This document shows positions 2,602-58,849 of a stretch of 64,000 nt of DNA, piece by piece. The DNA is from Ignavibacteriota bacterium (GTDB taxonomy: Bacteria > Bacteroidota > Ignavibacteria > UBA10030 > UBA6906). The position numbers were made by a program, and so were the translations under genes. The DNA lies in contig CAWDEM010000008.1 of NCBI GenBank assembly GCA_963801355.1, forward strand, positions 2,240,001-2,304,000, in the 5' to 3' direction. Numbering within the stretch: position 1 is the first letter of the stretch; each line of letters starts with the position of its first letter. The notes under the pieces are model-generated. The model ran no database searches and was not told the DNA's origin. It saw only the letters and a program-made list of their open reading frames with translations.

Positions 2602-2612
2602 GGAGACGACAG

Positions 2613-2655
2613 TCCGGGGTCTAGGATTCGGGGTTCAGAGTCCGGGCGTTCGGGC
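2613..2655. repeat. Degenerate 7-bp tandem repeat spanning the mqnE-A stop codon
   Basis: TCCGGGG TCTAGGA TTCGGGG TTCAGAG TCCGGGC g TTCGGGC. Confidence 0.5.
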
Positions 2656-4528: not shown

Positions 4529-4565
4529 AGCTCGGTCTGCCTGATGGAACATCGGAAACGGAACG

Positions 4566-7731: not shown

Positions 7732-7733
7732 GA

Positions 7734-17721: not shown

Positions 17722-17747
17722 GAGGGGGGCTCCGGATTTCTGCCGGG

Positions 17748-18242
17748 TTACGGTTTTTCAATCAGGAAGAGCACCTGATCGTATTCCACCGGTTGCGCGT
17801 TTTCCACCATTACCTTGGCGACTCTGCCGGCGACATCTGACTCGATCTCATTCATCAGCTTCATCGCTTCGACAATACACAGCACGGTTCCGGGTTGAAC
17901 CTCAGTCCCGACCTGAACAAACGGCGCGGCATCAGGCGCAGGCGCCCGATAGAATGTGCCGACAATAGGCGAACGGATTTCCATCCTCGTGTCTGCCGGG
18001 GTCGGAGGAGGGAGAGCAGCAGCCTGTCCCGCAGCCGGAACAGGTGCCGGAGCAGTGACTGCAGAGGGCGGTGCGGCATGACGGTAAGCATCCGGCGTCC
18101 AGACCGGTGGCGCAGGTGGAACTGCCATGCGCTGCGGATGTTTTGCAACGCGGACCTTCTTCCCTTCCTCCTCTATCTCAATTTCATCCACGTCACTGTC
18201 GGAAAGGAGCTTGACAAGCTTTTTGATGAGGCTCAGATCCAT
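17748..18242 (-). CDS. accB: Biotin carboxyl carrier protein
   Basis: Pro/Ala linker, SPIVGTFY and EAMKLMNEI. Confidence 0.97.
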
Positions 18243-32261: not shown

Positions 32262-33524
32262 ATGACTGCAGAAATTCTCACGATTGGCGACGAACTGCTC
32301 ATCGGCCAGGTGATCAACACCAATCAGGCCTATATCGCGGAACAGCTGAACCTGATCAACATTCGCGTGGCACGCATGCAGACTGTGGGCGATGAGATAG
32401 ACGAAGTGCTGGCGGCATTCCGCTCTGCGTGGGACGCGTACGATGTCGTCATCGTCACAGGGGGGCTCGGACCGACACATGACGATATTACGAAGAAGGC
32501 GGTGTGCCGATTTTTCGATACGGACCTCATCAGCAGCGAGACCGTGCGTCGCCACATCCAGGAACTCTGGAAACGCCGGAACATGCGGTGGACCCTGTCG
32601 TCTGAAGAGCAGACGATGGTGCCCCGGAAGGCGGCATTGGTCGACAATCCACTTGGCACCGCTGCGGGTTTCGTATTCACAGACGGAACGAAGAGGTTCA
32701 TCGTCCTCCCGGGCGTGCCGTATGAAATGAAGGAGATGATGGTCCGGTCGGTGATCCCGATGCTCCTTCCGCTGGTGGGGGGAATGTCGATACGGCACCG
32801 CACGGTGAGAACCACCGGCATCGCCGAGAGCATGCTGGCCGAGCGCCTGGGAGATATCGATGCCTTACTGGAAGGAGCGAAGCTGGCCTTCCTGCCGGCA
32901 CCCACCGGTGTGCGGCTCCGGATCACTGTGCATGACACTGCCCCCGGAGCGGCCGAGCAGAGGGTGCGGGAAATCGAGGACCGCATCCGCGCACGCGCGG
33001 GGGAGTTCATCTACGGCGTTGACCACGAAGAGCTGGAGGAAGTCCTGGGGAGGATTCTCACTGAACGAAGACTGTCCATTGCCGTGGCCGAATCGTGTAC
33101 CGGCGGAATGATCTTGAACAGGCTGACAAATGTCAGCGGCAGTTCAGCGTACGTCGAACGTGGCGTGGTGTGCTATAGCAACCGTTCGAAGATGGAACTT
33201 CTGGGCGTGCCGGAGCGACTGCTCACGCATCATGGTGCCGTGAGCAAGGAAGTCGCTGTAGCAATGGCCGCCGGCATTCGTCGCATCGCTGGAACAGACA
33301 TCGGCCTCTCCACCACGGGCATCGCCGGACCAACAGGCGGCACTGAGGAAAAGCCGGTGGGATTGGTCTGGATCGGCTATGCAAATGCCGCTGCGGCTTT
33401 TGCGGTCGAACACCGGTTCGGAGGAACGCGCGCCCTGATCAAAGAACGGGCTTCGCAGGCTGCACTCGATCTGGTACGGAAAAGCATCACAACGGGGAAG
33501 GAAAACAGTCGTGACATCGCGTGA
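32262..33524 (+). CDS. cinA: CinA (molybdopterin-binding-like domain plus PncC NMN deamidase)
   Basis: IGDELLIG, GGLGPTHDDIT, LPGVPYEM, AESCTGG and TGIAGP. Confidence 0.95.
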   Translation: MTAEILTIGDELLIGQVINTNQAYIAEQLNLINIRVARMQTVGDEIDEVLAAFRSAWDAYDVVIVTGGLGPTHDDITKKAVCRFFDTDLISSETVRRHIQELWKRRNMRWTLSSEEQTMVPRKAALVDNPLGTAAGFVFTDGTKRFIVLPGVPYEMKEMMVRSVIPMLLPLVGGMSIRHRTVRTTGIAESMLAERLGDIDALLEGAKLAFLPAPTGVRLRITVHDTAPGAAEQRVREIEDRIRARAGEFIYGVDHEELEEVLGRILTERRLSIAVAESCTGGMILNRLTNVSGSSAYVERGVVCYSNRSKMELLGVPERLLTHHGAVSKEVAVAMAAGIRRIAGTDIGLSTTGIAGPTGGTEEKPVGLVWIGYANAAAAFAVEHRFGGTRALIKERASQAALDLVRKSITTGKENSRDIA

Positions 33525-34743
33525 ACGCATCCTTGCGGCTCTCCACCATCGTCAGCCTGACCGCGTGCCGGTCGATTTCTCCGGTCACCGGTCGTCCGGC
33601 ATCCACGCAATCGCCTATGCCCGTTTGCGCAAGTACCTCGGTCTTCCCGAGCGGCCGATCCGCGTGTACGACATCATCCAGCAAATGGCGGTTGTCGACG
33701 AGGATATCCTGGCCCTTGCCGGCGCGGATACCATCGAACTCGGACGCGCCTTTGCGACAGAGGACCGGTGGTGGCATGACTGGGTTCTCCCTGACGGGAC
33801 TCCCTGCCAGGTTCCTATCTGGGTCACTCCCGAACGGGATGGTGCACGGTGGGTGTTGCGGTCGGCGAGCGGCCGGATCCTTGCACAAATGCCTGACGGC
33901 GCGCTCTATTTTGAACAGACATATTACCCGTTCCTTGATGGGGTCGAGAACTTCGACGCCTTCCCCGAGGTGTTTGCGGAGTCAATGTGGACAGGCATAG
34001 CGTCCCCTCCCGGACCGATCGCCGACGGCCCGGACGGCACACGCGCGTTCATCGAAGGGGCGAAGGGACTGCGTGCAGGTACGGACAGGGCTATCCTTGC
34101 ACTGTTCGGAGGCAATCTCCTGGAGGTCGGTCAGTTCATGTACCGGAATGACAATTTCTTCATGCTCCTTGCCGGCGAACCCGAGCGGGCCCATGATTTC
34201 CTGGAACACGTGGTGGAATACCACCTCCGCAATCTTGAGAGTTTTCTCGGAAAGATCGGTCCGTTCGTCGACATCATCGTCTTCGGCGATGATCTCGGGA
34301 TGCAGACAGGGCCGCAGCTCTCGCCGGCCATGTACAGGGAATTCTTCAAACCCCGGCATGCGCGGATGTGGAAACGCGCGAAGGAACTGGCCCCTGTTAA
34401 GGTCATGCTGCACAGCTGCGGTGGAGTGCGGGAGTTGCTGCCGGATCTCATCGATGCCGGCCTTGACGCCATCAATCCGGTGCAGATTTCCTGCCGGGGA
34501 ATGGAAGCGGCGGGGTTAAAGCGGGACTTCGGAGACCGCATCACCTTCTGGGGAGGCGGTTGTGACACGCGGGAGGTTCTTTCGCGCGGAACGCCGGCAA
34601 TGGTCCGTGCACATGTACACGATCAGATCCGCGCACTGCATCATGAGGGCGGCTTTGTGTTCCAGCAGGTGCACAACATCCTGGCGGATGTCCCGCCCGC
34701 CAATATCGTAGCGATGTTCGAGGCGGTGCGCACAGCACAATAA
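33511..34743 (+). CDS. Uroporphyrinogen decarboxylase-like / MtaA-CmuA superfamily protein
   Basis: MTSRERI.AAL....PDRVPVD, GDDLG.Q, HSCG, NPVQ, FWGGGCD and HNI..DVPP.NI. Confidence 0.85.
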   Translation: MTSRERILAALHHRQPDRVPVDFSGHRSSGIHAIAYARLRKYLGLPERPIRVYDIIQQMAVVDEDILALAGADTIELGRAFATEDRWWHDWVLPDGTPCQVPIWVTPERDGARWVLRSASGRILAQMPDGALYFEQTYYPFLDGVENFDAFPEVFAESMWTGIASPPGPIADGPDGTRAFIEGAKGLRAGTDRAILALFGGNLLEVGQFMYRNDNFFMLLAGEPERAHDFLEHVVEYHLRNLESFLGKIGPFVDIIVFGDDLGMQTGPQLSPAMYREFFKPRHARMWKRAKELAPVKVMLHSCGGVRELLPDLIDAGLDAINPVQISCRGMEAAGLKRDFGDRITFWGGGCDTREVLSRGTPAMVRAHVHDQIRALHHEGGFVFQQVHNILADVPPANIVAMFEAVRTAQ

Positions 34744-34827: not shown

Positions 34828-35550
34828 GTGAACACCCGACTGCAACGCACAGGGCTACCCGATCAGTTGGCAGAACGGCTCCAGCGGCTCATCGCGGAGA
34901 GGCACCTGCAGCCGGGTGCCCGCCTCCCTCCGATGAGCGCACTCGCTGTCCGCTTCCGTGTCGGATACCCCACCCTCCGCGAAGGACTCAAGAAACTCGA
35001 AGCACTCGGCGTCATCTCCATCCACCACGGATCCGGGGTGTACGTTCGTCAACCCGTCACCGGCATTTTTCTGGTTAACCCCATTTCCGCAGCAAGCGAG
35101 CCAACCCGAAAGGTCCTTCTGGATCTCATCGAAGCCCGTGGGGCCGTGGAGATGGGCACTATCGGGCTCGCCGCCGAAAGAATAACTCCCGCACAATCAG
35201 CGCAGTTGGAGCGTCTCCTCGAAGAGGCGCTCCGTAACCTCGAGGACCATCAGGAGCTCAACCGCATTAACATGCAGATTCATCTCTGCATCGCAGCGGC
35301 CTCCGGCAATTCCGTGCTGACACACCTCCTGGAGGTAATTCTGAACATGTTCAAAGAGCAGCAGCGCCTGCTGCTCGACATCCGCGGCTTTCCGCGGAGC
35401 GACTATGAACAGCATGTGCGGCTCGTCGATGCCGTACGGCACCGCCATAAAGCATTGGCCCTCACACGCATGCGCAAACATCTCGACGGATTCCGGCAGG
35501 CCGTCCTTGACTTGGACAGCACTCACACCAATTCCACAGAAAGACGCTAA
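34828..35550 (+). CDS. GntR/FadR-family transcriptional regulator
   Basis: N-terminal wHTH (PGARLP...LREGLKKLE..G.....HGSGVYV) and FCD-type C-terminus (IH..IAAASGN, H..LVDA). Confidence 0.92.
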   Translation: MNTRLQRTGLPDQLAERLQRLIAERHLQPGARLPPMSALAVRFRVGYPTLREGLKKLEALGVISIHHGSGVYVRQPVTGIFLVNPISAASEPTRKVLLDLIEARGAVEMGTIGLAAERITPAQSAQLERLLEEALRNLEDHQELNRINMQIHLCIAAASGNSVLTHLLEVILNMFKEQQRLLLDIRGFPRSDYEQHVRLVDAVRHRHKALALTRMRKHLDGFRQAVLDLDSTHTNSTERR

Positions 35551-35551
35551 C

Positions 35552-38530
35552 ATGGCGACGGACATTCTGCGACGCGCACTGTTGTGCGGCCTCACGGCAG
35601 TCACGTTCTCCGGTGCGGCGTTCAGCCAGTTCGGCAAAGTGACCGGTATCATCACCGACCGCGCAACCCGCGAACCGCTCATCGGAGCAAATGTCACACT
35701 CTCTGGGACCACGGCCGGCGCTTCCACAAATACCCAGGGCGAATACTTCGTTCTCCGCGTTACCCCCGGAGTGTATATATTGCGCGTATCGCTGCTCGGA
35801 TATCACGAAGCCACGGTGAAGAACGTCAAGGTGAGTATCGACCTCTCCACACACATCAACGTCGCCCTCGATGAACAGAGCGTGGAAATCGGAGAAGAGG
35901 TGGTCATCACCGCGGAACGCCCGGTGATCCAGAAAGACGCCACCTCCAGCACGCTGTATGTCGACGCCGCCACGATATCCGCCCTGCCGGTCTCGGATGC
36001 CCGGGAGGGTATCCTCGTCCAGAGCGGCGTGTTCTTCGACCCGATCCCCGTCATGGGAGGCCTGGGCGGATCCGGCAGAGGCGAAACCCGCTATGCTGTC
36101 CGCGGCGGTACCCAGCAGGAGGTGAAGTGGTTCTACGACGGGGTGCGGACCGGCGCCCTCATCGAGGGCCGCGCCGATCGCGGCGGTTCGTACACCGGGG
36201 TCAACTTGAATGCCGTCCAGGAAATCCAAGTGCTCACGGGCGGCTTCAGCGCGGAATATGGTGACGCCCAGTCAGGTATCGTGAATGTCGTCACCAAAGA
36301 AGGGGGAGGCGGATATTCCGGATCGGTGGAATACATCCACGGCTTCGCCGGACAACACCATTTCGGCCCGTATCTGTACGACCAGACCTCTCAGAAAGAG
36401 TTCCTGGACCACCGCGTGCCCGACGGCTCACTGGACCCTGCATGGTGGACTCCATACCGGCAGCGCCAGATATATGACTACACGAACATTTCCGATCATA
36501 CGGTATATCTCAGCTTTGGCGGACCGATCTATCAAACCACCGGTGGCAAGGGAGCATTTTTTCTCTCAGCAGCCCTCAAGCGAGAAGCGTATGTTTTTCC
36601 CCACCCACGGGATACGCGGAACAATGAAAACGTCATGGGAAATTTTTCGTTCCAGCTCCAGCCGGAAATGAAACTCCGTGTCACCGGCCTCTTGGCCCAC
36701 GAAGCACACGCGACACTCCAGGAGAACGGCGACTTCGTCATGCAGGCAAAATATTACCGGGGCTGGGGATCCCTGCTTGACACCTATACCTACAGCGGCT
36801 CCGCCCAACTCACACACACGCTGTCGCCCTCACTCTTCTATGAGGCCAAACTCAGCGGCTTCCTGTTTGACAGCCGGGAGACTCCCAGCGACTATATCGC
36901 ACTCGGAGAGAGCAAGAACCCCGACTTGTTCGGGTTCCAGCGGTACGACGGCTATCAGAGCGAGCCTTTCGATGCGTACTCCTACATTCTCAACAACCAC
37001 CTGCAGAACGGTGATCTCTCCTTCACCGGCAGCGTCAGCTGGCAGGCAGACCAGGCAAATCTTCTCAAAGGGGGAGTGGAGTTTCATTATAACACGCTGG
37101 CGGAAAAGGAAGTCAGCCGGTGGCCTTCCTTTACCACAGAGCGTGCGCTCTGGCTGAACCGCGGTCTCCACGAGACCTATCATCCCCTGCAGCTTTCGGC
37201 GTATCTTCAGGACAAGATGGAATTCGAGAGCATGATCCTCAGCCTGGGAGTACGATACGACTACTTCAATCCGAATCGTGACTGGTTCTGGGGCAACAAC
37301 CTCTACAATCTCAGCATCGATCCCGAGTATTCGGTCGCACAGGACCCCGACCGGGATCAGATCGATTCTCTCGGACATGTGAAGTACGCGTTTGACAATG
37401 TGCTCAAGAAATCCCGGACCCCCTCCCCCACCTATCACATGGTCAGCCCGCGCCTCGGGGTATCCTTCCCCATCACGGAGAATACCGTCCTGCGCTTCAA
37501 CTACGGCCACTTCTACCAGATGCCGCCTCTGGACTGGTTGTATGAGTTCAATTATTTCCGTCCCATTTACATCGTGAAAAGCATTCAGGCGGAATTGGGC
37601 AATCCCAACCCGCGCCACATCCCTTCTGCCGATGGCGACCCGGAACGCGTAGTGCTCCTGACCAATCAACCCCTGCGTCCGATGAAGACGGTGTCTTTCG
37701 AAGCGGGTATCAAACACAACTTCAACGATATCGTTGTGCTGGATGTCGTGGGATTCTACAAAGACGTGACAGACCAGACGTACTCGCGGCAGGGAATCTT
37801 TGACCGTCGCATTTACGGATACGATCCCTTCAGCCGGACCACCACCACGAACACATTCTATTCCAGCTTGCTGTCAGGGGACTACGGTGACGCGCAAGGA
37901 TTCGAAGTGACCCTCCGGTCCCTCTTCAGCAATGTGGTGATGTTTGACCTGAACTACAGCTTTTCACGATCCCTGCAGGGCCGGGCATCGCCGGCGAGAA
38001 TCAATTATGACTCTCTCGGATTGACAACGTTTGTGTATGATACAGACGTTAACAGAAGGATCCCCGTGGAATCTCATTTCAGCCGCCCGCACATTGTTCG
38101 GGCAAACGTGTTGCTACGGTATCCTCAAGATGCGGGGGAGTCTTTCCTGTCAGATATTCTCCGCGATGCCAGCGCCAGCATTCTGTATCGTTTCACCAGC
38201 GGGCAGACGTTCACGTACCTCGGGCCGAACGACCCGCCCGACACATATGACAACCAGAGGTATCCTGTTTCACATACCGTTGACCTCCGCCTCGATAAAT
38301 CACTCCGGTTGGGGGGAAACCACGAGGTGAGTGTTTCGCTCCGTATCACCAACCTGTTGAACACAAAGAACGTGCGCTCCCTCGGTGACATTTTCTATGA
38401 TCCCAACGCGATAAAGAAATTTGTCGACACCGGCGAGGTCACGACAGTTGACGGTGCAGGGTACGACATCTCCTGGCAGACGTGGTACGAAACACGCCGC
38501 TTCTATTTGAGCGCGCGATACGTGTTCTAA
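35552..38530 (+). CDS. TonB-dependent receptor (non-SusC type) with N-terminal carboxypeptidase-regulatory-like domain
   Basis: Signal peptide; GKVTG.ITD..T.EPLIGANV; EEVVITAERPVI; plug motif TGGFSAEYG.AQSG.VNVVTK; SPRLGVSFPI; C-terminal Phe. Start moved to ATG 35552. Confidence 0.92.
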   Translation: MATDILRRALLCGLTAVTFSGAAFSQFGKVTGIITDRATREPLIGANVTLSGTTAGASTNTQGEYFVLRVTPGVYILRVSLLGYHEATVKNVKVSIDLSTHINVALDEQSVEIGEEVVITAERPVIQKDATSSTLYVDAATISALPVSDAREGILVQSGVFFDPIPVMGGLGGSGRGETRYAVRGGTQQEVKWFYDGVRTGALIEGRADRGGSYTGVNLNAVQEIQVLTGGFSAEYGDAQSGIVNVVTKEGGGGYSGSVEYIHGFAGQHHFGPYLYDQTSQKEFLDHRVPDGSLDPAWWTPYRQRQIYDYTNISDHTVYLSFGGPIYQTTGGKGAFFLSAALKREAYVFPHPRDTRNNENVMGNFSFQLQPEMKLRVTGLLAHEAHATLQENGDFVMQAKYYRGWGSLLDTYTYSGSAQLTHTLSPSLFYEAKLSGFLFDSRETPSDYIALGESKNPDLFGFQRYDGYQSEPFDAYSYILNNHLQNGDLSFTGSVSWQADQANLLKGGVEFHYNTLAEKEVSRWPSFTTERALWLNRGLHETYHPLQLSAYLQDKMEFESMILSLGVRYDYFNPNRDWFWGNNLYNLSIDPEYSVAQDPDRDQIDSLGHVKYAFDNVLKKSRTPSPTYHMVSPRLGVSFPITENTVLRFNYGHFYQMPPLDWLYEFNYFRPIYIVKSIQAELGNPNPRHIPSADGDPERVVLLTNQPLRPMKTVSFEAGIKHNFNDIVVLDVVGFYKDVTDQTYSRQGIFDRRIYGYDPFSRTTTTNTFYSSLLSGDYGDAQGFEVTLRSLFSNVVMFDLNYSFSRSLQGRASPARINYDSLGLTTFVYDTDVNRRIPVESHFSRPHIVRANVLLRYPQDAGESFLSDILRDASASILYRFTSGQTFTYLGPNDPPDTYDNQRYPVSHTVDLRLDKSLRLGGNHEVSVSLRITNLLNTKNVRSLGDIFYDPNAIKKFVDTGEVTTVDGAGYDISWQTWYETRRFYLSARYVF

Positions 38531-38541
38531 CGGAGACCGGC

Positions 38542-40374
38542 ATGACCTCTCGATTGTACATTGTTCTGATCTGCGCGGTAGCCCTCCTGGCCAGGGAAGG
38601 CATGCACGCGCAAACCCGCACCCCCGAGTTCCGTGTTCACGATCGTGGCGAGCTCTGGGAAACCATGAAAGACAACGGCCTGATCGGTGCACCGAATCCG
38701 ACCAACCGGTTTGAATACTATCCCAGCATGGATTGGCCAGGCGGACCGCACATTCTGGTCAGCAAAGACGAACAACGTTCCTATAATTACCAGGCCGGCA
38801 TGTGGATGGGTGGCAAGAAGGCCGGAGGTCAGCTGTTCTTCACTGAAAACGGCCCATTCACATTCGTTGACAACGGCACATTCTCGGCAATCACCAAAAA
38901 AACCAATTTCTTTGGTTCTCCCGGGTTCAACCCGGAGGAAGCGGAGGAAACCATAACCGCCGAATGGACGACAACAGAAGGCATGCGCGTCAAACGCACA
39001 AGCCGCAGCTGGAGCTCTCCCCCGTACAACAACTTTATACTCATCGAGTATCTGGTGACGAATCTGAACTCCTCCGCTGTCTCCGACCTTTTCCTCGGAT
39101 TCCCCTATCTCCTCCGCCCCAGTTACCAGGATTTTGTAGTACACAACGGTTGGGGAGACGATTTGAACCGTGCCGATGATCTCCCTGGGTTTGATTCCAC
39201 TCTCGCCCTGATGTATGTATATGATGACACGCCGAATTTCAGCATCCCGTCGGATGTCGGCAACTATTGGTCGAAAGCCGACGAACTCCGCACCACCGGC
39301 TTCGCCGGAGTGGCATTGATCTTCGCTGACGCTGCGACGGGCGGACGCGCGCAACCGGCCAACATCCTCTCCGCCCAGTTGTTGGGCAACGAACGGAACC
39401 TGACGCTCAGCAGTGTAACGCCGGCGAAGTTGTACGATGTGCTCACAGGAGCGGACCGGTCTCTTCAGGCTGCCTCAGATCTGCGCCTTTGCCCGTTCAT
39501 GCTGATGTCCTGCGGACCCTATACCGTCGCTCCCAACGGCATAGTCAAAATCGTCCTCGCCCAGGCGGTGAATGGCCTGCCTTTGAGTGATGCTGTTCTC
39601 GGGCTTGCGATGCAGCCTTCGCTCCCGGCAGGACTCGACTTATTGAAGGCAAGCATTTCCCGGGCTCGTGATGTGCAGGCTGGCAACAATCGTCTCCCCG
39701 CATTCCCTCCTCCCTCGCCGGACGCCGAGTATATCGCTTTGCCGACATCCCGGTCAATCTCCCTGACCTGGCCGCCGCTTGAGGATGTCTACGCCAATGC
39801 CGTGAGCGGTGCACGCAATTTCCGCGGCTACAAGGTGTATCGTAGTTCCCGGAGCTTCGTGGGCCCGTTCACGCTCATGCGGACGATTAATGCCCGCAAC
39901 CCGACCGACCGCACACGGTTCTATGACGCTGCCCTGGGCAGGTGGCGCGTGCTCGACCAATCCATCGATCTGGGCGTGACATATTTCTATGCCGTCACGT
40001 CGTTTGACAGTCTGGACAACGAAAGTGGCCTGACGAACAGGAATGAACTGGGGATCGCCGCCACAAGTCCCCCCGCCGCGTCCGCTTCCGATGTCCGTGT
40101 CTTTCCGAATCCGTTCCGCGGTGTCTCCGGCTTCCCCACCCGCGGAGAGGAGAGCTCCATTGTATGGACCAACCTCCCCGGTCTCGCGACAATCCGCATC
40201 TTCACCTCGAGCGGCGAGCTGGTGAAAACCATCAAACAGGAAAGCCTTACCTCCGGACAGGTGGTGTGGGATCAGTTATCCGATGCACGCCAGCGCGTAG
40301 CTCCGGGGATTTTCTTCTGGACGGTGGAGTCTCCCGTCGGAAGCTCCCACGGCACTCTGGTGATCATCAAGTGA
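38542..40374 (+). CDS. Secreted protein of unknown function with FN3-like module and T9SS/FlgD-like C-terminal domain
   Basis: Signal peptide ending AQ; LTW...F.GYKVYRS...YFYAVTSFD...ES (FN3-like); VFPNPF...FT.SGELVKTI...WD...PGIFFW...LVIIK. Confidence 0.8.
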   Translation: MTSRLYIVLICAVALLAREGMHAQTRTPEFRVHDRGELWETMKDNGLIGAPNPTNRFEYYPSMDWPGGPHILVSKDEQRSYNYQAGMWMGGKKAGGQLFFTENGPFTFVDNGTFSAITKKTNFFGSPGFNPEEAEETITAEWTTTEGMRVKRTSRSWSSPPYNNFILIEYLVTNLNSSAVSDLFLGFPYLLRPSYQDFVVHNGWGDDLNRADDLPGFDSTLALMYVYDDTPNFSIPSDVGNYWSKADELRTTGFAGVALIFADAATGGRAQPANILSAQLLGNERNLTLSSVTPAKLYDVLTGADRSLQAASDLRLCPFMLMSCGPYTVAPNGIVKIVLAQAVNGLPLSDAVLGLAMQPSLPAGLDLLKASISRARDVQAGNNRLPAFPPPSPDAEYIALPTSRSISLTWPPLEDVYANAVSGARNFRGYKVYRSSRSFVGPFTLMRTINARNPTDRTRFYDAALGRWRVLDQSIDLGVTYFYAVTSFDSLDNESGLTNRNELGIAATSPPAASASDVRVFPNPFRGVSGFPTRGEESSIVWTNLPGLATIRIFTSSGELVKTIKQESLTSGQVVWDQLSDARQRVAPGIFFWTVESPVGSSHGTLVIIK

Positions 40375-40384
40375 GGCATGCGCC

Positions 40385-41326
40385 ATGACTCGAATATTCG
40401 CTCTGCTCTTTCTCACCCTCGTCGGTCCCGCTGCGCTTGCACAGTTCGACTACGGGTTCGAGTTTTCGAAAGCGGGAACCGCCGGTCTTCAGGCGCTCAA
40501 GATACTGCCGGGGGCGCGCGACGCCGCGCTGGCGGGCGCCATGGTCTCTCTCGCCAACGATGCCACAGCGGTATTCATCAATCCCGGGGGGCTGGCATTC
40601 GTGGATCAATCAGAAGCAGTGGTCTCACATGTTTCCTGGCTTGCCGGCAGCCGCACCGACGCAGCGGTCCTCGCAACTCCCTTCGCGGGTTTCGTGTTTG
40701 CCCTGAGCGCTGTCCGGTTCGGCATCGAGGAGTTCGAGGAAACCACCGTCCGTCAGCCGATGGGCACCGGCCGTATGGTGTCAGCCGGCGATCTGGTGAT
40801 CGGACTGGGGGCAGCCCGCCGGTTCTCTGACAAGCTGACAATCGGGCTCCAGCTCAAATACGTGCGGGAATCCCTCGACCATGACGCCGTGAACAACATC
40901 CTCTTTGACGTCGGGTCCATCTACTACACCGGCTTCCATAATCTCCGCCTCGGTTTTGCGGTGCAGCACTTCGGGCCGGACATGAAGATCATCGACCAGA
41001 AATTCCGCTCCCCCCTGCTCTTCCGCGTGGGTGCCGGTGAGGATGTGACATGGGGGGATGACCATCGTCTGACCACTGCAGTCGATCTCGTGCACCCCAC
41101 TGACAACAACGAGTGGGTCAACTGGGGCGTGGAATACGAGATGTTCAGTACCCTCAGCCTGCGCACAGGATACCGGTTTGATGTGGAGCGAGGCAAATGG
41201 AGCTTCGGTGCGGGCGTCCGGCCACCCGAGGTTGCCGGCATCGCCCTCGGTGTCGACTATGCATATTCGCACTTCGATGCAACATTCGGGGCCATTCACC
41301 AGTTCACGGTTGCCATCGCTTTTTGA
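40385..41326 (+). CDS. PorV/PorQ-family outer-membrane beta-barrel
   Basis: KAGTAG...LKI.PGAR.AAL.GA...NDATAVFINPGGL, the typical PorV/FadL-like N-terminus; alternating strands; DYAY; terminal Phe. Confidence 0.85.
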   Translation: MTRIFALLFLTLVGPAALAQFDYGFEFSKAGTAGLQALKILPGARDAALAGAMVSLANDATAVFINPGGLAFVDQSEAVVSHVSWLAGSRTDAAVLATPFAGFVFALSAVRFGIEEFEETTVRQPMGTGRMVSAGDLVIGLGAARRFSDKLTIGLQLKYVRESLDHDAVNNILFDVGSIYYTGFHNLRLGFAVQHFGPDMKIIDQKFRSPLLFRVGAGEDVTWGDDHRLTTAVDLVHPTDNNEWVNWGVEYEMFSTLSLRTGYRFDVERGKWSFGAGVRPPEVAGIALGVDYAYSHFDATFGAIHQFTVAIAF

Positions 41327-41338
41327 GACAGAGTGGGA

Positions 41339-44173
41339 ATGAAGATGACGAGCAGGACTATGTGGCTGTTGTGCCTTCTCCTGAGCGGGGTCGGCAGTTC
41401 CGCTCACGCGCAGTTCGATCGTCCATGGCAAATCTATCTCGTGCCGTCTTCACACATTGATGTCGGCTATACGGCCCCCGTCGGGCAGGTCCTGCAAGAC
41501 CATCTGCGCTACCTTGACACTGTCGTGGTCTGGACGGAACGAACGAACGGCAATCTTCCCGGTGAGCAGTTTCGCTGGACTATCGAGATTCCATGGGTGG
41601 TGGAGGCGTATCAGCAACATCGCACTGCCGCGCAGGTCGAACGTCTGATGGCGTGCGTGCGACGCGGTGAGGTTGAGATCGGCGGGATGTACTTCGGCCT
41701 GCAAACCGATTTGTGCGGCAACGAGGAACTCGTGCGTTCGCTCATATTTTCCCAGGAGATGCGCAATACGTACAACATTCCCGTCCGCACGGCATTCATC
41801 AACGACACTCCCGGTTTGACCTGGTCGCTCGCACAGCTCATGCCGAAGGCGGGAATACAATATCTGTCGGTGGCAATGAACTCATTCCTGTCCGACTTCT
41901 ACACAACGACGACGCTGCCCAATCTCTTCCATGTGCAGGCGCAGAACGGTGAGAAGCTCTTGGTGTGGCGTTCCATCGACAAGACGTGGGCGTACCTTGA
42001 GGGGAGCGTGACCTGTGCAGTCTATGCACCCGGGCCGGCGATTATGCAAACGAATCTCACCAAGTTTCTCCAGGCATTGGCGGGCAGCGGCTATCCATAC
42101 AACGAAGTGATGATCAACTGCGCCACCGGTGACAACGGCGCCCCTAATTTCACGATTGTCAACAATGCCAAGGATTGGAACGGTACATTCCCCAACGCAC
42201 GAATCCAGATAAGTACCGCGACAGCATTTTTTGATACTATGGTGGCCCGCCATGCCGCACAGATCCCGGTGTACAGCGGCGATGCGCCAAACTGGTGGTC
42301 ATGGCTTTTTGCCCCGTCCGCAACAGGCGGCAACGTGCTCTCCCGGAACGCCCATATGCTCCTTCCCGCTGCCGAAACCTTCGCTACCTTCGCTGCACAG
42401 AAGGATCCCGCGTTCATGATCACGCCGACAACACTGCGCAACGCCTACATCAACAATCTGACGTTTGAAGATCATAACCTCGGGGCGAACTATGCAGGGG
42501 GCAACGAGCCCTTCTGGGTTCTTAAGATGGGCTGGATCAACGCCGCGGTCGATACCGGCACGGCCGTTCTGGACCGGGCCATCGATGCGATTGGGCGAAG
42601 CATTCCCACGGGGACAACACCAGCGATAGCGGTATTCAATCCTCTTGCATGGGAACGTTCGATACCTGTGACGCTCACCGCATCACAGGTGACCTCCCTT
42701 GGGGTATGTGACATCCAAGAAGAATCGACGGGAGCGATGGTGCCCGCGCAGCTATTGCATGACGGTTCACTCTGCTTTATCGCAGCGCACGTCCCCTCGG
42801 TCGGCTATGCGGTCTATCGTATTGTGCCGAAGACAGAACCTTTCCTCCCGCCGCGTCCGCTTGCGGGATACACGGTAGAAAACGCATCATACCGGGTGGA
42901 TGTGGATCCAGCGACGGGCGGAGTGCTCTCCCTGATCGACAAGGGCACCGGCAGAGAGATTGTCTCCGGTGCAGGTCAGTTCAATCAGTACCGCTACAAC
43001 AACACTTTTTCCCCCTCAGGGATGACGATCCGCGCTTCGGATAGCGGATCCGTCTTGCAGTCCATCACGCTTCAAGGATCAGCACAGGGAACGAGCATGT
43101 TCGCCACGACTGTTGCCCTGTATGAAGCCATTAAGCGTCTGGAAATGCGCAGTGTGTACAACAAACTCATTCCGACCTCAACTGAGACGGTGGATTTCCA
43201 TTTCTCCTTTGCCGTGCCATCGCCGCAGATGAGATACGAAATACCGTTCGGCGACGTCAGGCTGTTCGCTGATGAGCTGAGCGGATTCAGCGTGAAACAC
43301 TACGCCTTCGGCCAGTGGCTGGATGTCGTGTCGGGCACGAACGATTTTGCCGCCGTGCTCGCCGTAAAGAACGCCTCAGTGACAGCTCATCCAAGCGGGA
43401 CATTTGAGGGCAACGTGCGCATCATGGTCTCCTACAACGATGCAGCATCAGCGTACCGCGCCGGTGTGGGACAGGTGCCCATGGACTTTTCGTTGACGAC
43501 CGCGTCAGGTTATTTCGCGGACTCCTCTATGCGCCATGCATATTCGTTCAGTGCGCCGGCACCGGTCCGGATCTTGCCTGCCGGCCAAAAGGGGACGCTG
43601 GGCGGCGGACGTCACTCTTTCCTGAGCGTCACGCCGGCGTGTCTCCTGCTCTCGACGGTAAAACCACCCGTGAGCGGAACCGGCTGCATCGTGCGTCTCT
43701 TCAATCCGCTTGATCACGCGGTCCCCGCAGTCTTGAAGTTCTCCGCTGCGGTACTGTCCGCGCGTGAGACGTCTCTGTTGGAAGTCGACGGTGCCACACT
43801 GGTATTCCGGCACGACTCTGTGTTTGCAGTATGGAACCCGTATGAAGTAAAAACCCTGCGCGTGCAACTTGCAGAGCCGACGTCCGCAGGACAATTCGAG
43901 GATGTCCCAGGCACATTCGATCTCGAACAGAATTATCCAAATCCTTTTAACCCGAGTACGACCATACGATTCTCAATTGTGGATCCACAATTCACCATTG
44001 TGAAGGTGTACGATCTGCTGGGGCGGGAGGTGGCGGTGCTCGTGAATGAACAGGTACCACCAGGACAACATGCTGTTGCATTCGATGCATCGCGACTTGC
44101 CAGCGGCACCTACGTGTGCCGGCTCCAGTCGGGAACGCACATCTCCACCATCAAAATGATGCTCGTCCGGTGA
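41339..44173 (+). CDS. GH38-like glycoside hydrolase with T9SS type A C-terminal domain
   Basis: Signal peptide (..SAHA-Q), SHIDVGYT, FRWTIE, NDTPG; CTD QNYPNPFNP...VYDLLGREV...LASGTY...KMMLVR. Start could be 41333, 41339 or 41345. Confidence 0.82.
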   Translation: MKMTSRTMWLLCLLLSGVGSSAHAQFDRPWQIYLVPSSHIDVGYTAPVGQVLQDHLRYLDTVVVWTERTNGNLPGEQFRWTIEIPWVVEAYQQHRTAAQVERLMACVRRGEVEIGGMYFGLQTDLCGNEELVRSLIFSQEMRNTYNIPVRTAFINDTPGLTWSLAQLMPKAGIQYLSVAMNSFLSDFYTTTTLPNLFHVQAQNGEKLLVWRSIDKTWAYLEGSVTCAVYAPGPAIMQTNLTKFLQALAGSGYPYNEVMINCATGDNGAPNFTIVNNAKDWNGTFPNARIQISTATAFFDTMVARHAAQIPVYSGDAPNWWSWLFAPSATGGNVLSRNAHMLLPAAETFATFAAQKDPAFMITPTTLRNAYINNLTFEDHNLGANYAGGNEPFWVLKMGWINAAVDTGTAVLDRAIDAIGRSIPTGTTPAIAVFNPLAWERSIPVTLTASQVTSLGVCDIQEESTGAMVPAQLLHDGSLCFIAAHVPSVGYAVYRIVPKTEPFLPPRPLAGYTVENASYRVDVDPATGGVLSLIDKGTGREIVSGAGQFNQYRYNNTFSPSGMTIRASDSGSVLQSITLQGSAQGTSMFATTVALYEAIKRLEMRSVYNKLIPTSTETVDFHFSFAVPSPQMRYEIPFGDVRLFADELSGFSVKHYAFGQWLDVVSGTNDFAAVLAVKNASVTAHPSGTFEGNVRIMVSYNDAASAYRAGVGQVPMDFSLTTASGYFADSSMRHAYSFSAPAPVRILPAGQKGTLGGGRHSFLSVTPACLLLSTVKPPVSGTGCIVRLFNPLDHAVPAVLKFSAAVLSARETSLLEVDGATLVFRHDSVFAVWNPYEVKTLRVQLAEPTSAGQFEDVPGTFDLEQNYPNPFNPSTTIRFSIVDPQFTIVKVYDLLGREVAVLVNEQVPPGQHAVAFDASRLASGTYVCRLQSGTHISTIKMMLVR

Positions 44174-44181
44174 GAACAACT

Positions 44182-45501
44182 ATGACACGGATCGCCGTCG
44201 GTCTCTCTGCCGCGGCGTTCATACTGCTCCTCGTCTGGGATGCGGGAGGAGAACGGCAACGGGACGACGGGCGACTGCACATCCGGTATTGGACTATCAT
44301 CGGGATGAAGGAAATCATTCCGTACTTCGCACGGTCCTTCGGCGATACCCAGGATCGCATTGTCGTTGATACAACCCCTATTCCCTGGCAGGAACATGAG
44401 AAGAAGATACTGACCTCGATCGTGAGCGGCAATCCACCCGACGTTGTCAACCAGATGACTCCGGTTGCCAAGTGGGCGTCGCGGCTGGCGCTGGTGCCGC
44501 TGGATGAGTATATTCGCCGGGATCATTTCGACACCACTATGTTTTTTAAGTCTCTCTGGGAGGAGATGCGCTATCGCGGTCGGATCTACGGCATCCCGGT
44601 CTACTCCGGATCGTATGCCCTCTTTTATAACAGAACGCTCTTCCGTGAGGCGGGCCTCGATCCCGACAAACCCCCGCACACATGGGAGGACGTTTTCGCA
44701 TTGAACAAGCGGTTCGTCAGGAGGGACGCCCGCGGGCATCTGCTCAGGATGGGGTTCATCCCCAACTACGGCAACGTCCAGACCTTCATGTTAATGGCCT
44801 GGCAGCAAGGAGCCTCTTTCGTGAGCCCCGACGGTACGCGGATTCAGGTCGCCGATTCTTCGGTGGTACATGCACTGCAGTGGGTGCAGCGGTTTTACGC
44901 TGAGTATGACCAGCGGGATATCGCAGCGTTCCTCGGCGGACTCGGGTTTGCAGATCAACACGGCTTCATCGCGGGAAAGGTCGCGATGATGATCCTTGAC
45001 AGCAGTTTTCCCGATCAGATTCGCGCTTACAAACCGGGGCTGGACTACGGTGTGGCCATGATCCCGACGTTTCCCGGAGATCCCACGGCGTCCGTTTCCG
45101 GCAGCTGGTGGCTGGGAATTCCTCGGGGGGCAAAACACCCCGAGGAAGCCTGGCAGTTCATCAAACACGCCGTCACCAAAGAATCCCAGCTGCTGGAAAT
45201 TGAAAAGACTGAGGAAAGTCTGTTCCCTGCAAACCGTCTCGCCGCGGAGGATCCCCGGTTCATGAACACGCCGGCCCGGGAGGTGTTCGTGCGTATGATG
45301 GAGTTCTCGCATTCGCCATCAATCGTCCCCCTTGCCCACGATATGTTCTGGCGCGAGATCTCTGGCGCACAGGAACGGGTTATCCACAATCTGCAATCCC
45401 CCGACGAGGCCCTGCGCCAGGCGGAACGGCAGATCCAGGCCATCCTCGACGATGCACGGGATTACGACCTGTATGTGCATACTCATGCGGGAGGAGAGTA
45501 A
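44182..45501 (+). CDS. ABC transporter sugar-binding protein (family 1)
   Basis: N-terminal hydrophobic helix, SGNPPDV, YGIP...LFYN..LF..AGL..PP.TW and F..GKVAM. Confidence 0.9.
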   Translation: MTRIAVGLSAAAFILLLVWDAGGERQRDDGRLHIRYWTIIGMKEIIPYFARSFGDTQDRIVVDTTPIPWQEHEKKILTSIVSGNPPDVVNQMTPVAKWASRLALVPLDEYIRRDHFDTTMFFKSLWEEMRYRGRIYGIPVYSGSYALFYNRTLFREAGLDPDKPPHTWEDVFALNKRFVRRDARGHLLRMGFIPNYGNVQTFMLMAWQQGASFVSPDGTRIQVADSSVVHALQWVQRFYAEYDQRDIAAFLGGLGFADQHGFIAGKVAMMILDSSFPDQIRAYKPGLDYGVAMIPTFPGDPTASVSGSWWLGIPRGAKHPEEAWQFIKHAVTKESQLLEIEKTEESLFPANRLAAEDPRFMNTPAREVFVRMMEFSHSPSIVPLAHDMFWREISGAQERVIHNLQSPDEALRQAERQIQAILDDARDYDLYVHTHAGGE

Positions 45502-46425
45502 ATGAAAGGGATCGACACAACCTGGATGCGCACGCCGCGCCGCAGGCAGGAAGCCTTCCTGGGTATCCTCTTTGCATCGCCGTGGCTTGTCGGATTCCTG
45601 GTGTTCGGCCTCTATCCGATGATTATGTCGCTGTACTTCAGCCTCTGCCGGTATGATGTGCTGCGCATCCCTCAGTTCATCGGACTTGGCAACTATCACA
45701 CACTCCTTGCACGCGATCCGTATTTTTGGACGGCGGTAGAGAACACCCTCTCTTATGCCCTCGTGCGCACACCGCTTTGCGTCGCCGGTTCGCTGTTCCT
45801 CGCCGTGCTGATCAATCGTGCCACGCGCGGTGCGCGGCTCTACCGGACGGTCTTCTTCCTCCCATCCATCGTCTCCGGCGTGGTTGTTTCTGTTCTCTGG
45901 CTCTGGCTCCTGAATCCCCAGTACGGGCTCATCAACTCGGCTCTCCAGTTGGTCGGCATCAACGGGCCGCTCTGGTTGCAGAGCCCCGAGTGGTCCAAGC
46001 CATCCCTTGTCCTTATGAGCCTCTGGTCGATCGGCGGCGGCCGGATGATCGTGTTCCTCGCCGCCCTCCAGACTGTGCCGCAGCATCTGTATGAGGTTGT
46101 CGACCTGGATGGGGGAGGTGCATGGCAGAAGTTCCGGCACGTCACCTTGCCCATGATTTCACCGGTGCTGTTTTTGTGGATTGTACTGGAAGTCATCTTT
46201 TCGTTTCAGGTGTTCACAGAATCCTATGTCATGACCAAAGGCGGACCGCTCAACTCCACGCTGTTCTATAATCTGTATCTGTACTACAAGGCGTTTGATG
46301 ATTTCGACATGGGATACGCCTCCGCACTTGCATGGCTCCTGCTCCTGTTCTCAGTGGTCGTCACTGTGGTGCAGTTCAAAGTCGGAAAACGGTGGGTGTA
46401 CTACGAAGCCGGCCGGGGGTCTTGA
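45502..46425 (+). CDS. Carbohydrate ABC transporter permease
   Basis: FIGL.NY, GLIN, LAALQ.VP..LYE...LDG...W.KF.HVTLP and GYASA. Confidence 0.93.
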   Translation: MKGIDTTWMRTPRRRQEAFLGILFASPWLVGFLVFGLYPMIMSLYFSLCRYDVLRIPQFIGLGNYHTLLARDPYFWTAVENTLSYALVRTPLCVAGSLFLAVLINRATRGARLYRTVFFLPSIVSGVVVSVLWLWLLNPQYGLINSALQLVGINGPLWLQSPEWSKPSLVLMSLWSIGGGRMIVFLAALQTVPQHLYEVVDLDGGGAWQKFRHVTLPMISPVLFLWIVLEVIFSFQVFTESYVMTKGGPLNSTLFYNLYLYYKAFDDFDMGYASALAWLLLLFSVVVTVVQFKVGKRWVYYEAGRGS

Positions 46426-46428
46426 GCG

Positions 46429-47265
46429 ATGACGCATCGACACAAAGGATGGAAACAGCTGGGGCTGTACACCGTACTGACGGCGTTCGGCGCCTTGTTC
46501 CTGATTCCCTTTCTGTGGGTGCTTTCGACTTCGCTCAAGGGCAATGAGCAAATCTTTACCATTCCCCCGCAGTGGATTCCGTTGCGGCTCCACTGGGAGA
46601 ACTACACGGAAATTTTCCGGCGCATGCCGGTGCTCCTGTATCTGAAGAACTCTGTGATTGTAACGGTGTTGCAGATGGTCGGCATCGTGGGTTCGAGCTC
46701 TCTGGTCGCGTATGCCTTCGCCATCCTCCGGTGGCCGGGCCGGAATCTCCTGTTTGGCGTCCTTCTTGCGACAATGATGCTTCCGATGCAGGTGACAATG
46801 ATCCCGGTGTTCGTGCTCTTCAAGCAACTCGGTTGGCTGGACACATTCAAGCCACTGGTCGTGCCGGCGTTCCTGGGCGGGGGCGCATTCAACATCTTCT
46901 TGCTGCGCCAGTTCTTCCTGGGCATTCCAGGAGAAATTGCCGACGCTGCCCGCATCGACGGATGCTCGGAATTCCGCATCTACTGGAACATCATGCTGCC
47001 CCTGGCCTCGCCCGCACTGGCAACGGTCGCCATCATGACCTTCATGTTCTCATGGAACGATTTCCTCGGACCGCTCATCTATCTGTCCGAAAAGGACAAG
47101 AGCACGTTGGCACTGGGTTTATCAATGTTCGTCGGACAGCAAACAAGTGAGTGGGCACTGCTGATGGCAGCTTCCATATTGATGATGCTTCCGATGGTGG
47201 CAGTCTTTTTCTTCTTCCAGAAATATATCATCCAGGGCTTCACTATGAGCGGACTCAAAGGATGA
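46429..47265 (+). CDS. Carbohydrate ABC transporter permease
   Basis: FLLRQFF..IP.E..DAARIDG, WNDFL.PL and FQKY...G....GLKG. Confidence 0.93.
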   Translation: MTHRHKGWKQLGLYTVLTAFGALFLIPFLWVLSTSLKGNEQIFTIPPQWIPLRLHWENYTEIFRRMPVLLYLKNSVIVTVLQMVGIVGSSSLVAYAFAILRWPGRNLLFGVLLATMMLPMQVTMIPVFVLFKQLGWLDTFKPLVVPAFLGGGAFNIFLLRQFFLGIPGEIADAARIDGCSEFRIYWNIMLPLASPALATVAIMTFMFSWNDFLGPLIYLSEKDKSTLALGLSMFVGQQTSEWALLMAASILMMLPMVAVFFFFQKYIIQGFTMSGLKG

Positions 47266-50717: not shown

Positions 50718-50838
50718 CATTCAAGAACACACGACAATCCCGAGAGAGGAGGGCTTGAGTAAGCCATTGCGAACTGGTATGTGACGACCATGGTTCGGTT
50801 TTTCCCCATTCCATCCACTCAACACAAGGAGGCTGTCC

Positions 50839-51681: not shown

Positions 51682-51775
51682 CCTGTACCGTTGAACTCCC
51701 GCGAGGGCTGTGTCGCGTGCGCAGATGCGGCCAGCCCTCGCGGTACGAACAACCACTCTTCTCCAAAGGCGACGC

Positions 51776-58830: not shown

Positions 58831-58849
58831 AGGAGCCGGTACAAGCACC

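Follow-up and report, generated by a model that had tools for sequence, protein, structure and literature searches.

Uptake of glycans across the outer membrane is known mainly from the SusC/SusD systems of Bacteroidia. Sediments, soils and hot springs harbor abundant degraders from Ignavibacteriota, Rhodothermota, Calditrichota, Fidelibacterota and related groups. To our knowledge, receptor loci of Ignavibacteriota and their relatives are annotated merely as "TonB-dependent receptor + hypothetical protein". In SusC/SusD PULs, a TonB-dependent receptor (TBDR) with a carboxypeptidase-regulatory-like N-terminal domain is followed by the gene of a surface protein, the alpha-helical lipoprotein SusD; these two genes open a regulated locus for glycan use that also encodes secreted and periplasmic glycosidases.

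Barrels that hold surface proteins are described in other systems. [quoted passage not shown] In SprB-SprF, which has a type B CTD, the genes of the cargo and of its dedicated small barrel are neighbors; the CTD probably escapes cleavage and the barrel has been proposed as cargo anchor. Finally, in the BAM complex of Bacteroidota, BamG, a 14-strand barrel of the FadL family, packs against a bigger barrel, and its loops hold a surface protein (excerpts of PMC12578637 and PMC12611786).

Here we analyzed a window of 64,000 nucleotides from an Ignavibacteriota bacterium (contig CAWDEM010000008.1), in which a SusD-less triplet encodes a TBDR (35552..38530), a secreted partner protein (38542..40374) and a PorV/PorQ-family barrel (40385..41326). 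Comparison of related sequences shows that this triplet is kept in related sugar-degrading clusters of several phyla; it is probably a sugar-capture unit. As in SusC/SusD PULs, the receptor carries a carboxypeptidase-regulatory-like N-terminal domain, the gene of the predicted surface protein comes next, and the glycan locus headed by the pair is regulated and includes glycosidases of both secreted and periplasmic kinds. All features given below lie on the forward strand. The ORF list and the junction sequences agreed with the coordinates and spacing of the first-pass annotation, namely three co-directional ORFs separated by 11 and 10 nt. The tight spacing noted in the same annotation does not set the triplet apart in this window. 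The gene upstream ends 1 nt before the receptor start, the gene downstream begins 12 nt after the barrel end, and the entire run 34828..56733 is closely packed. Thus, spacing by itself is a weak argument.

The upstream gene (34828..35550) encodes a GntR/FCD-family transcription regulator (Pfam GntR 4.4e-16, FCD 1.6e-22). Downstream of the barrel lies a GH38 alpha-mannosidase-family protein with a signal peptide and a canonical type A CTD (41339..44173). It is followed by an ABC sugar importer (44116..47265; Pfam/NCBIfam), composed of a binding protein with a probable start at 44182 and two permeases (45502..46425 and 46429..47265). A second GH38-family protein (47151..50717, probable start around 47262) has a signal peptide and no CTD, and a third (53830..56733; Pfam) has no evident signal peptide. 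The locus also contains a DUF4961 protein with a canonical type A CTD (50839..51681; Pfam/NCBIfam) and, at its far end, a DUF4185 (GH183-type) protein (61666..62850; Pfam 6.1e-22). The absence of SusD noted in the first-pass annotation was borne out, with no SusD-type Pfam family among the 45 window ORFs scanned. T9SS core genes were likewise absent from the window; the proteins with canonical CTDs encoded in the locus point to the existence of a T9SS. Scanning for promoters and terminators gave nothing exceeding the shuffled expectation.

The receptor is a protein of 992 aa with a signal peptide (Pfam/NCBIfam and junction sequences). Its longest ORF begins at 35405, but the signal peptide begins at the ATG at 35552; the TAA stop lies at 38528-38530. 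CarbopepD_reg_2 (residues 30-118), Plug (residues 128-242) and TonB-dependent barrel domains were recognized, PF07715 (38.3 bits) and PF00593 (75.5 bits) both scoring over their cut-offs as expected for a generic TBDR. A TonB-box-like motif lies at residues 115-123, and orthologues carry the same type. It had been proposed that the receptor lacks SusC signatures. This holds for the whole protein, which, unlike the receptors of SusC/SusD PULs, falls below the cut-off of the SusC/RagA model TIGR04056 (65.6 against 368 bits), but not for its N-terminus: the match covers model positions 2-222 only, and the first ~240 residues resemble the SusC N-terminus (E 3e-18). No SusC chain was found among the PDB sequence matches of the receptor. 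The receptor is thus a TonB-dependent transporter with a SusC-like N-terminus and a non-SusC barrel.

The partner (ATG 38542, TGA 40372-40374) is a secreted protein of 610 aa without Pfam family. Its orthologues in 80 loci share 46-80% identity (median 55% across phyla). It is not a lipoprotein: the signal-peptide consensus terminates in A-Q, and a conserved Cys is absent there. No Pfam family matched at E<=0.01, and at E<=10 FlgD_ig alone appeared (0.17). The partner profile gave no match to PDB sequences at E<=1. By Pfam, NCBIfam and PDB sequence searches the partner falls into no known hydrolase family and is no SusD homologue, two identities that would have spoken against the reading of the first-pass annotation. 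No SusD Pfam match was found, the model is nearly all beta and no Cys is conserved where the signal peptide ends. In SusC/SusD PULs, by contrast, the corresponding protein is alpha-helical and a lipoprotein, whereas the partner is all-beta, has no lipobox and ends in a T9SS-type CTD.

An alignment-based AF2 model (pLDDT 77.2, pTM 0.75) showed a beta-sandwich N-domain, an FN3-like domain and the CTD; a single-sequence model was unusable (pLDDT 32.9). The N-domain (residues ~24-345, 38611..39576) is predicted to be an all-beta super-sandwich with strongly conserved polar loops. In Foldseek it best matched GH94 phosphorylases, in their N-terminal sandwich regions (TMq 0.27-0.31, ~380 columns). 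These TM-scores are low (<=0.31 on the query) and therefore the fold assignment is coarse; in the model, the sandwich is similar in fold to N-domains that are accessory parts of enzymes acting on glycans. The second domain (residues ~396-489, 39727..40008) appeared as an FN3-like beta-sandwich in the AF2 strands and in Foldseek matches to tandem FN3 structures, including 2gee and 3lpw. The FN3-like module of the first-pass annotation is thus visible in the predicted structure, but was undetected by Pfam, PF00041 (fn3) giving no match to the partner even at E<=10.

The orthologue alignment revealed numerous invariant Asp, Glu and His as well as aromatic residues in the N-domain. Judged from conservation, these Asp, Glu and His residues would likewise be compatible with an enzyme or with a metal site. 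The partner might then belong to an undescribed enzyme family and act at the surface, for instance as an endo-glycanase feeding the receptor, with the barrel as its dedicated secretion or anchoring partner and without any SusD analogue. We regard this explanation as rather unlikely. The density of invariant acidic, His and aromatic residues would fit it, as would the family-wide core D212, D228, D238 and E135 (in distant paralogues, D212 is retained in 15/17, D228 in 15/17 and E135 in 13/17) and the very high conservation of the partner across phyla. Moreover, the GH38 enzymes of the locus are presumably exo-type by family, so that an endo-activity could be wanted. However, the partner matched no catalytic Pfam or NCBIfam family and no PDB sequence, and its structural matches were non-catalytic N-domains, with no catalytic barrel aligned. 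In addition, the window and 34/80 of the related loci already encode DUF4185/GH183-type proteins, and the published family is endo-acting (PMC10115798).

Other origins of the partner were also considered. Alignment by hhalign with the three GH38 proteins and with a 707-aa unknown protein revealed no N-domain similarity, and derivation of the sandwich domain from a GH38 domain was rejected on these grounds. The partner is not PorZ, as it reached 27.3 bits against a cut-off of 260 and matched at the C-terminus only. In the ESM Atlas, the partner found only unnamed or uninformative clusters, and the named clusters had no N-domain match.

The partner CTD (residues ~515-610, 40084..40371) resembles a type A T9SS tail but carries an insertion behind the PNPF motif. 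Profile alignment shows homology with type A tails (hhalign against canonical CTDs of the locus: probability 91.5 and 90.6, the former for the GH38 CTD with E 8.8e-7). The extra stretch behind PNPF is missing from the NPST-type tails at 41339..44173 and 50839..51681, in agreement with the visible difference noted from the letters alone. It was found in 67/67 rows examined, from 98 aligned distant representatives of at least 550 aa. At E<=0.01, TIGR04183 recognized 35/44 partner orthologues (best 1.1e-5); the window's own partner reached neither TIGR04183 nor PF18962 (Por_Secre_tail) at this threshold. The top NCBIfam matches of the partner CTD were the C-termini of PorZ (1.2e-6) and PorU (1.6e-4).

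The conservation of this tail is unusual for the locus. Pairwise identity was 0.755 in the partner CTD versus 0.637 in the remainder of the protein. The corresponding values were 0.436 versus 0.541 for the GH38 protein in the same 19 sequences, and 0.511 versus 0.507 for the DUF4961 protein. Among the segments compared, the CTD also had the lowest mean distance (0.306). The partner thus carries a distinct CTD subtype whose conservation exceeds that of the remaining sequence; this does not apply to the canonical tails of its neighbors.

The third gene (ATG 40385) encodes an outer-membrane barrel of 313 aa. Its assignment to the PorV family in the first-pass annotation was upheld at family level: NF033709 (PorV/PorQ family) scored 171.5 bits over a cut-off of 90. 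The barrel stayed below the models for PorQ proper (NF033711, 59.9 against 220) and PorV proper (NF033710, 52.3 against 250), as well as PorP/SprF (TIGR03519, 16.9 bits against 90.55). Its profile matched F. johnsoniae PorV (6h3i_F, 7.2e-8), and its orthologues bear the NCBI label "PorV/PorQ family protein". Each locus contains exactly one PorV/PorQ-family gene, always directly after the special-CTD protein, and no barrel followed any of 103 canonical-CTD ORFs (0/103). A barrel as obligatory third member distinguishes these loci from SusC/SusD PULs.

Weak Pfam matches of the barrel to FadL/Toluene_X (E 0.0025) and UPF0164 point in another direction. The barrel could work as a channel of the FadL type that admits a hydrophobic moiety of the substrate, such as the lipid anchor of a lipoglycan, and would then not bind the CTD. 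PorV is itself described as a FadL homologue in an excerpt of PMC12578637, and the gene content of the locus could fit a lipoglycan target. Yet the PorV/PorQ family model was clearly passed, PorV was matched among solved structures, and such a channel leaves the constant position of the barrel after the special-CTD protein unexplained. This role is very improbable.

In total, 80 related loci, all of the same orthologous locus type, were compared. Relative to the partner, the TBDR lay upstream in 79/80 and the barrel downstream in 78/80, the three misses all being contig ends; the triplet is conserved, as the first-pass annotation had anticipated. In other words, the three genes are adjacent in every examinable related locus. 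The receptor orthologues (79/80 loci) share 45-84% identity. Median gaps within the triplet were 20 and 11 nt (78 loci each). The GH38/ABC-importer surroundings are rearranged about the triplet: ABC genes precede it in 35 loci and follow it in 30, and different genes come after the barrel (DUF4961-type 26, GH38a 20, GH38b 10, SBP 9). As all 80 loci are of one orthologous type, adjacency could partly reflect inheritance of a single operon. Distance correlations in a mirror-tree analysis were non-discriminating, since every pair correlated (partial r 0.44-0.68); the CTD-barrel value (partial r 0.50) did not exceed those of other triplet pairs.

These data also bear on a simpler role for the barrel. 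It might be a mere cargo-specific export helper, as SprF is for SprB, the partner being cleaved or released and acting away from the receptor, and the gene order reflecting co-expression. We hold this to be quite improbable. It would agree with the closely packed run 34828..56733, which makes spacing little informative, and with type B CTD cargo known to have clustered cognate barrel genes (passages of PMC10202324). Against it, conservation within the partner peaks in the CTD, in contrast to the tails of neighboring cargo, the receptor is never parted from the pair while other genes move, and the barrel failed the PorP/SprF model. Pairs of the SprB-SprF type have no receptor gene and carry a type B CTD; that of the partner is type-A-like.

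Gene context and conservation lead us to prefer, tentatively and at somewhat less than even confidence, a partner that is a surface accessory protein, anchored next to the receptor through its CTD on a dedicated barrel and serving a SusD-like or glycan-binding role. The partner would leave the cell across the outer membrane via the T9SS. Its CTD would remain uncleaved and be held by the dedicated barrel, as PorZ is on PorQ and PorU on PorV, a retention that conservation alone suggests. The sandwich domain would thereby be tethered at the cell surface, adjoining the receptor, where it may capture or present the glycan for import via TonB; the substrate is probably a polymer that contains mannose. 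Such capture would be the job that SusD or surface glycan-binding lipoproteins do in Bacteroidia. Periplasmic GH38 enzymes and the ABC importer would complete the pathway; downstream uptake by such an importer is a further difference from SusC/SusD PULs. The triplet would constitute one outer-membrane module of a conserved glycan-utilization locus (GH38, DUF4185/DUF4961, ABC importer).

The proposed tether is closest to PorQ-PorZ and PorV-PorU, which likewise combine a PorV/PorQ-family barrel with a surface protein, presumably anchored by a retained type-A-like CTD. The best matches of the partner CTD to PorZ and PorU C-termini, and the slightly higher score of the barrel for PorQ than for PorV, are in line with this resemblance. 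However, the pair described here stands outside the secretion machinery, in a substrate-specific locus adjoining a TBDR; its passenger is a sandwich plus FN3 protein rather than a propeller protein or a peptidase, and partner and barrel fall below the PorZ, PorU, PorQ and PorV equivalog cut-offs. SprB-SprF shares the side-by-side arrangement of cargo and barrel genes. BamG-BamH offers an architectural precedent, a small barrel, a large barrel and a surface-exposed protein above, although it belongs to a protein-insertion machine and the lipoprotein BamH is bound through its N-terminal region instead of a CTD.

According to a section of PMC5753385, susCD pairs are recorded in PULDB for Ignavibacteriae and Balneolaeota. 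The triplet would thus be an additional architecture in these lineages and not a substitute for a missing SusD. The alternative glycan-capture architecture put forward in the first-pass annotation is supported in part, as a conserved SusD-less triplet. No description of a triplet of TBDR, CTD protein and PorV/PorQ-family barrel was found in the full-text literature, covering main texts and few subscription journals. A broader generalization, which we consider possible although doubtful, is that insertion-bearing type-A-like tails form a class of retention signals read by cognate PorV/PorQ-family barrels, and that non-Bacteroidia FCB lineages use them to build SusD- and lipoprotein-independent "utilisomes" around TBDRs, the triplet being the first recognized example. 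If the triplet works as outlined above, type IX secretion would assemble an uptake complex, PorV/PorQ-like barrels would gain a role beyond the secretion machine and a large unannotated protein family would receive a name. The triplet would also serve as a simple metagenome marker for such loci.

At E<=0.001, the family search gave 2566 representatives, many of them probably matched via the tail alone. Submitters labeled the 80 loci as Ignavibacteriota (29), Bacteroidota (21), Rhodothermota (13), Fidelibacterota (4), Calditrichota (2), Balneolota (1) and Bacillota (1), with no label for nine, and the tree largely tracks these label groups. In 16/80 loci the triplet is preceded by a gene for a GntR homologue.

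The three genes lie on the forward strand in the order receptor, partner, barrel. The TonB-dependent receptor gene (992 aa) runs from an ATG at 35552 to a stop at 38530; its longest open reading frame opens further upstream, at 35405, but 35552 is where the signal peptide begins. The partner gene (38542..40374, 610 aa) follows after 11 nt and the barrel gene (40385..41326, 313 aa) after a further 10 nt. The ORF listing and the junction sequences thus reproduced the coordinates and gaps of the first-pass annotation. The tight spacing it had pointed out is real, but is not peculiar to the triplet, since the neighbours are equally packed. Indeed, 1 nt separates the end of the GntR/FCD regulator gene from the receptor gene, 12 nt separate the barrel gene from the next GH38 gene, and the packing continues as far as 56733. 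Between 33000 and 45000, no promoter-like or terminator-like signals were detected above shuffled expectation. For the ABC binding protein at 44116 and the second GH38 at 47151, the longest ORFs run into the preceding genes. Internal ATGs at about 44182 and 47262, respectively, each followed by a hydrophobic signal-like segment, are more likely to be the true starts.

Conservation of this arrangement was assayed in other assemblies. A word-indexed search returned 293 partner relatives at E ≤ 0.001, and the 120 matches listed were full length, with 53-84% identity. Of 135 stretches matched in a genome scan, 93 encode a partner relative, and the locus counts given here refer to the best 80 of these 93. 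A receptor orthologue is located immediately 5' of the partner in 79/80 loci and a barrel orthologue immediately 3' in 78/80. The missing receptor corresponds to a contig beginning inside the partner gene (L035), and the two missing barrels to contigs ending inside it (L006 and L050), so that the proposed conservation of the triplet as a unit was borne out. Compared with the window proteins, the receptors were 45-84% identical, the partners 46-80% and the barrels 44-76%. Median gaps, based on heuristic start codons in 78 loci each, were 20 nt (receptor-partner) and 11 nt (partner-barrel), and complete ORFs for all three genes were present in 62 loci.

All 80 loci belong to a single orthologous locus type, so that the adjacency reflects conservation inside a single ancient operon. 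The surroundings vary: ABC importer genes lie upstream of the triplet in 35 loci and downstream of it in 30; they were not seen in the other 15, which are mostly short contigs. Next to the barrel on its 3' side is a gene of the DUF4961 type (26 loci), the GH38-CTD gene (20), the second GH38 (10) or the binding protein (9). Two loci (L075 and L078) gave no tblastn match to the window GH38 genes, yet contain divergent GH38 and DUF4185 genes. Because the adjacency survived these rearrangements, the three genes very probably form one functional unit.

Submitter labels for the 80 loci were Ignavibacteriota (29), Bacteroidota (21), Rhodothermota (13), Fidelibacterota (4), Calditrichota (2), Balneolota (1), Bacillota (1) and none (9, including KSB1 and Zhuqueibacterota); L029 bears the label Melioribacter roseus. 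In a quick tree of 78 orthologues, sequences were mostly grouped by label (21 label changes against 34.7 in shuffles), and the window was placed with three "Bacteroidetes bacterium" contigs (support 100), beside a Rhodothermota group (support 82). One metagenome-assembled genome carries the whole triplet in two copies (L015 and L023), 89% identical in the N-domain, 91% in the FN3-like part, 97% in the CTD and 89% in the barrel.

A Pfam scan of the receptor revealed CarbopepD_reg_2 (residues 30-118), Plug (128-242) and a TonB-dependent barrel, and residues 115-123 form a TonB-box-like motif. The receptor had been described as lacking SusC signatures. This applies to the whole protein, which scores far under the SusC/RagA cut-off (65.6 against 368 bits), but not to its N-terminal ~240 residues, which are SusC-like (E 3e-18). 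SusC chains were absent among the matches of a PDB sequence search, and receptor homologues carry the plain source name "TonB-dependent receptor". As claimed earlier for SusD, no SusD-type family was detected in the 45 window ORFs scanned.

The third protein, described earlier as a PorV-family barrel, passed the PorV/PorQ family model with 171.5 bits for a cut-off of 90. Its profile matched the solved structure of F. johnsoniae PorV (E 7.2e-8), and NCBI names its orthologues "PorV/PorQ family protein". The models for PorV proper, PorQ proper and PorP/SprF were also assayed, and scores fell below the cut-off in each case (52.3/250, 59.9/220 and 16.9/90.55 bits, respectively).

The partner matched no Pfam family; up to E ≤ 10, the sole match was FlgD_ig at 0.17. 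The only NCBIfam matches were to the C-termini of PorZ (1.2e-6) and PorU (1.6e-4). The signal peptide contains no conserved lipobox cysteine, and Q24, the glutamine after the predicted cleavage site, was invariant in 44 orthologues. A glutamine occupies this position in receptor, partner and barrel alike; N-terminal pyroglutamate is common in secreted Bacteroidota proteins. A structural model built with 36 aligned homologues (pLDDT 77.2, pTM 0.75; 32.9 pLDDT for the single-sequence version) predicted an all-beta N-domain (from about residue 28 to 345), then a helical linker (348-380), followed by an FN3-like sandwich (396-489) and a C-terminal sandwich (519-608). Thus, the FN3-like module suggested by the first-pass annotation appears in the predicted structure, but corresponds to no Pfam family.

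The main alternative to a glycan-capturing partner is that it is an undescribed surface enzyme. In a Foldseek search of the PDB, the N-terminal part matched the sandwich at the N-terminus of GH94 phosphorylases (among them 1v7v and 3qde; TMq 0.27-0.31 over ~380 columns), a coarse fold assignment because of the low TM-scores, and the C-terminal part matched tandem FN3 domains. No catalytic-barrel counterpart to the model was found in the same search, and the partner profile had no sequence relatives among solved structures. An exhaustive search gave 2566 partner-related representatives at E ≤ 0.001, of which 358 passed 1e-10 and 22 passed 1e-30; many of the 2566 probably matched via the tail alone. 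Among 150 representatives listed, 98 had at least 550 aa, and the 67 of those 98 whose C-termini were compared ended in the same insertion-bearing tail subtype. Pfam analysis of 30 such proteins of at least 550 aa gave no family for 25, weak tail-type matches only for 3 and other domains for 2. Part of the set of residues invariant in the N-domain persisted in 17 distant full-length paralogues, with D212 and D228 retained in 15/17 and E135 and W157 in 13/17; R26, R79, Q196 and D197 (0/17) and H201 (2/17) were specific to the orthologues. The family thus resembles a shared scaffold whose specificity loops vary. This pattern fits a diversifying family of binding proteins, although an enzyme family would look alike; we consider the enzyme unlikely.

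The partner CTD (residues ~515-610) is related to canonical type A tails. Residues 519-610 aligned to the CTD of the neighbouring GH38 protein (41339..44173; profile-profile probability 91.5, E 8.8e-7) and, with a probability of 90.6, to that of the DUF4961 protein (50839..51681). The type A model TIGR04183 was matched by 35/44 partner orthologues (E ≤ 0.01), the PorU C-terminus by 31/44 and the PorZ C-terminus by 23/44. The reported difference from the canonical tails of the locus proved to be an insertion immediately past PNPF, which they lack. Conservation was compared for orthologues with at least 85% coverage and at least 40% identity to the window protein. In 19 sequences also having the GH38-CTD gene, pairwise identity was 0.755 for the partner CTD against 0.637 for the rest, and 0.436 against 0.541 for the GH38 protein. 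In 17 sequences with the DUF4961-CTD gene, these values were 0.740 against 0.612 for the partner and 0.511 against 0.507 for the DUF4961 protein. Over the 42 sequences in which the six genes under comparison were all present, mean distances were 0.306 for the CTD, 0.42 for the N-domain and 0.50 for the FN3-like part, while barrel and receptor gave 0.43 and 0.425, respectively. The CTD is the most conserved segment of the partner, as would be expected of a retained interaction module and not of a disposable export signal.

Each related locus contains exactly one barrel gene. None of the 103 canonical-CTD ORFs of the window and the related loci has the barrel gene behind it. By the same strict coordinate test, 62/80 partner-type CTD ORFs do, fewer than the 78/80 found for orthologues because ORFs were bounded stop to stop, contigs end and some gaps are longer. 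We rather favor the CTD and the barrel being a cognate pair. Precedents are described in PMC10202324: PorV and PorQ hold PorU and PorZ, respectively, both of which retain their CTDs; a PorV-like barrel may shield its cognate CTD from cleavage; and type B cargo genes are clustered with their PorP/SprF barrels. Similarly, according to PMC12578637 and PMC12611786, the FadL-family barrel BamG packs on BamA and its loops bind the surface protein BamH. By analogy, the partner would be exported by the T9SS and keep its tail, the dedicated barrel would tether it next to the receptor, and its sandwich domain would capture glycan for import. Gene order, family membership and conservation pattern are the directly observed part of this mechanism; the full chain is a tentative proposal.

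A receptor with an accessory protein is already known from SusC/SusD-type systems, and a barrel with a retained CTD from PorV/PorQ-type systems. Their combination, like the tail subtype and the partner family, appears not to have been described before: the full-text literature searched, which leaves most subscription journals outside its coverage, gave no account of a triplet of this kind. According to PMC5753385, PULDB contains susCD tandems from Ignavibacteriae and Balneolaeota; therefore, the triplet is an extra architecture in these lineages rather than one filling in for a SusD that is lacking.

The locus continues from 41339 to 62850 with three genes of the GH38 family, one DUF4185 gene, an esterase (PF00756), a ROK kinase and an ABC importer. 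A DUF4185 homologue occurs in 34/80 related loci, and in some loci the barrel is followed by a fused DUF4961+DUF4185+CTD protein. PMC10115798 describes the DUF4185 family as GH183 endo-D-arabinofuranases, with mycobacterial arabinogalactan and lipoarabinomannan as their substrates. Judging from gene content, an arabinomannan-like glycan may be targeted, with the cell envelopes of actinobacteria as one conceivable source. A URO-D-like gene (33511..34743) lies just 5' of the regulator and another is present in L078. The triplet flanks in L075 (2717..6663, 13038..13676) and L078 (993..3155, 13220..13864, 16986..18089) encode B12-binding-domain proteins, PocR-AraC regulators and HAD hydrolases. 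These genes resemble a corrinoid methyltransferase-like set inside the glycan locus, possibly for O-methylated sugars. Two large window proteins matched no Pfam or NCBIfam family; within the flanks examined, the first (51710..53833, 707 aa) recurs in 7/80 related loci and the second (58796..60688, 630 aa) in 0/80. Finally, a futalosine-type menaquinone set unrelated to the triplet (VitK2_biosynth, radical SAM MqnC/E-like, UbiD/UbiX-like and UbiA) occupies 647..7743.
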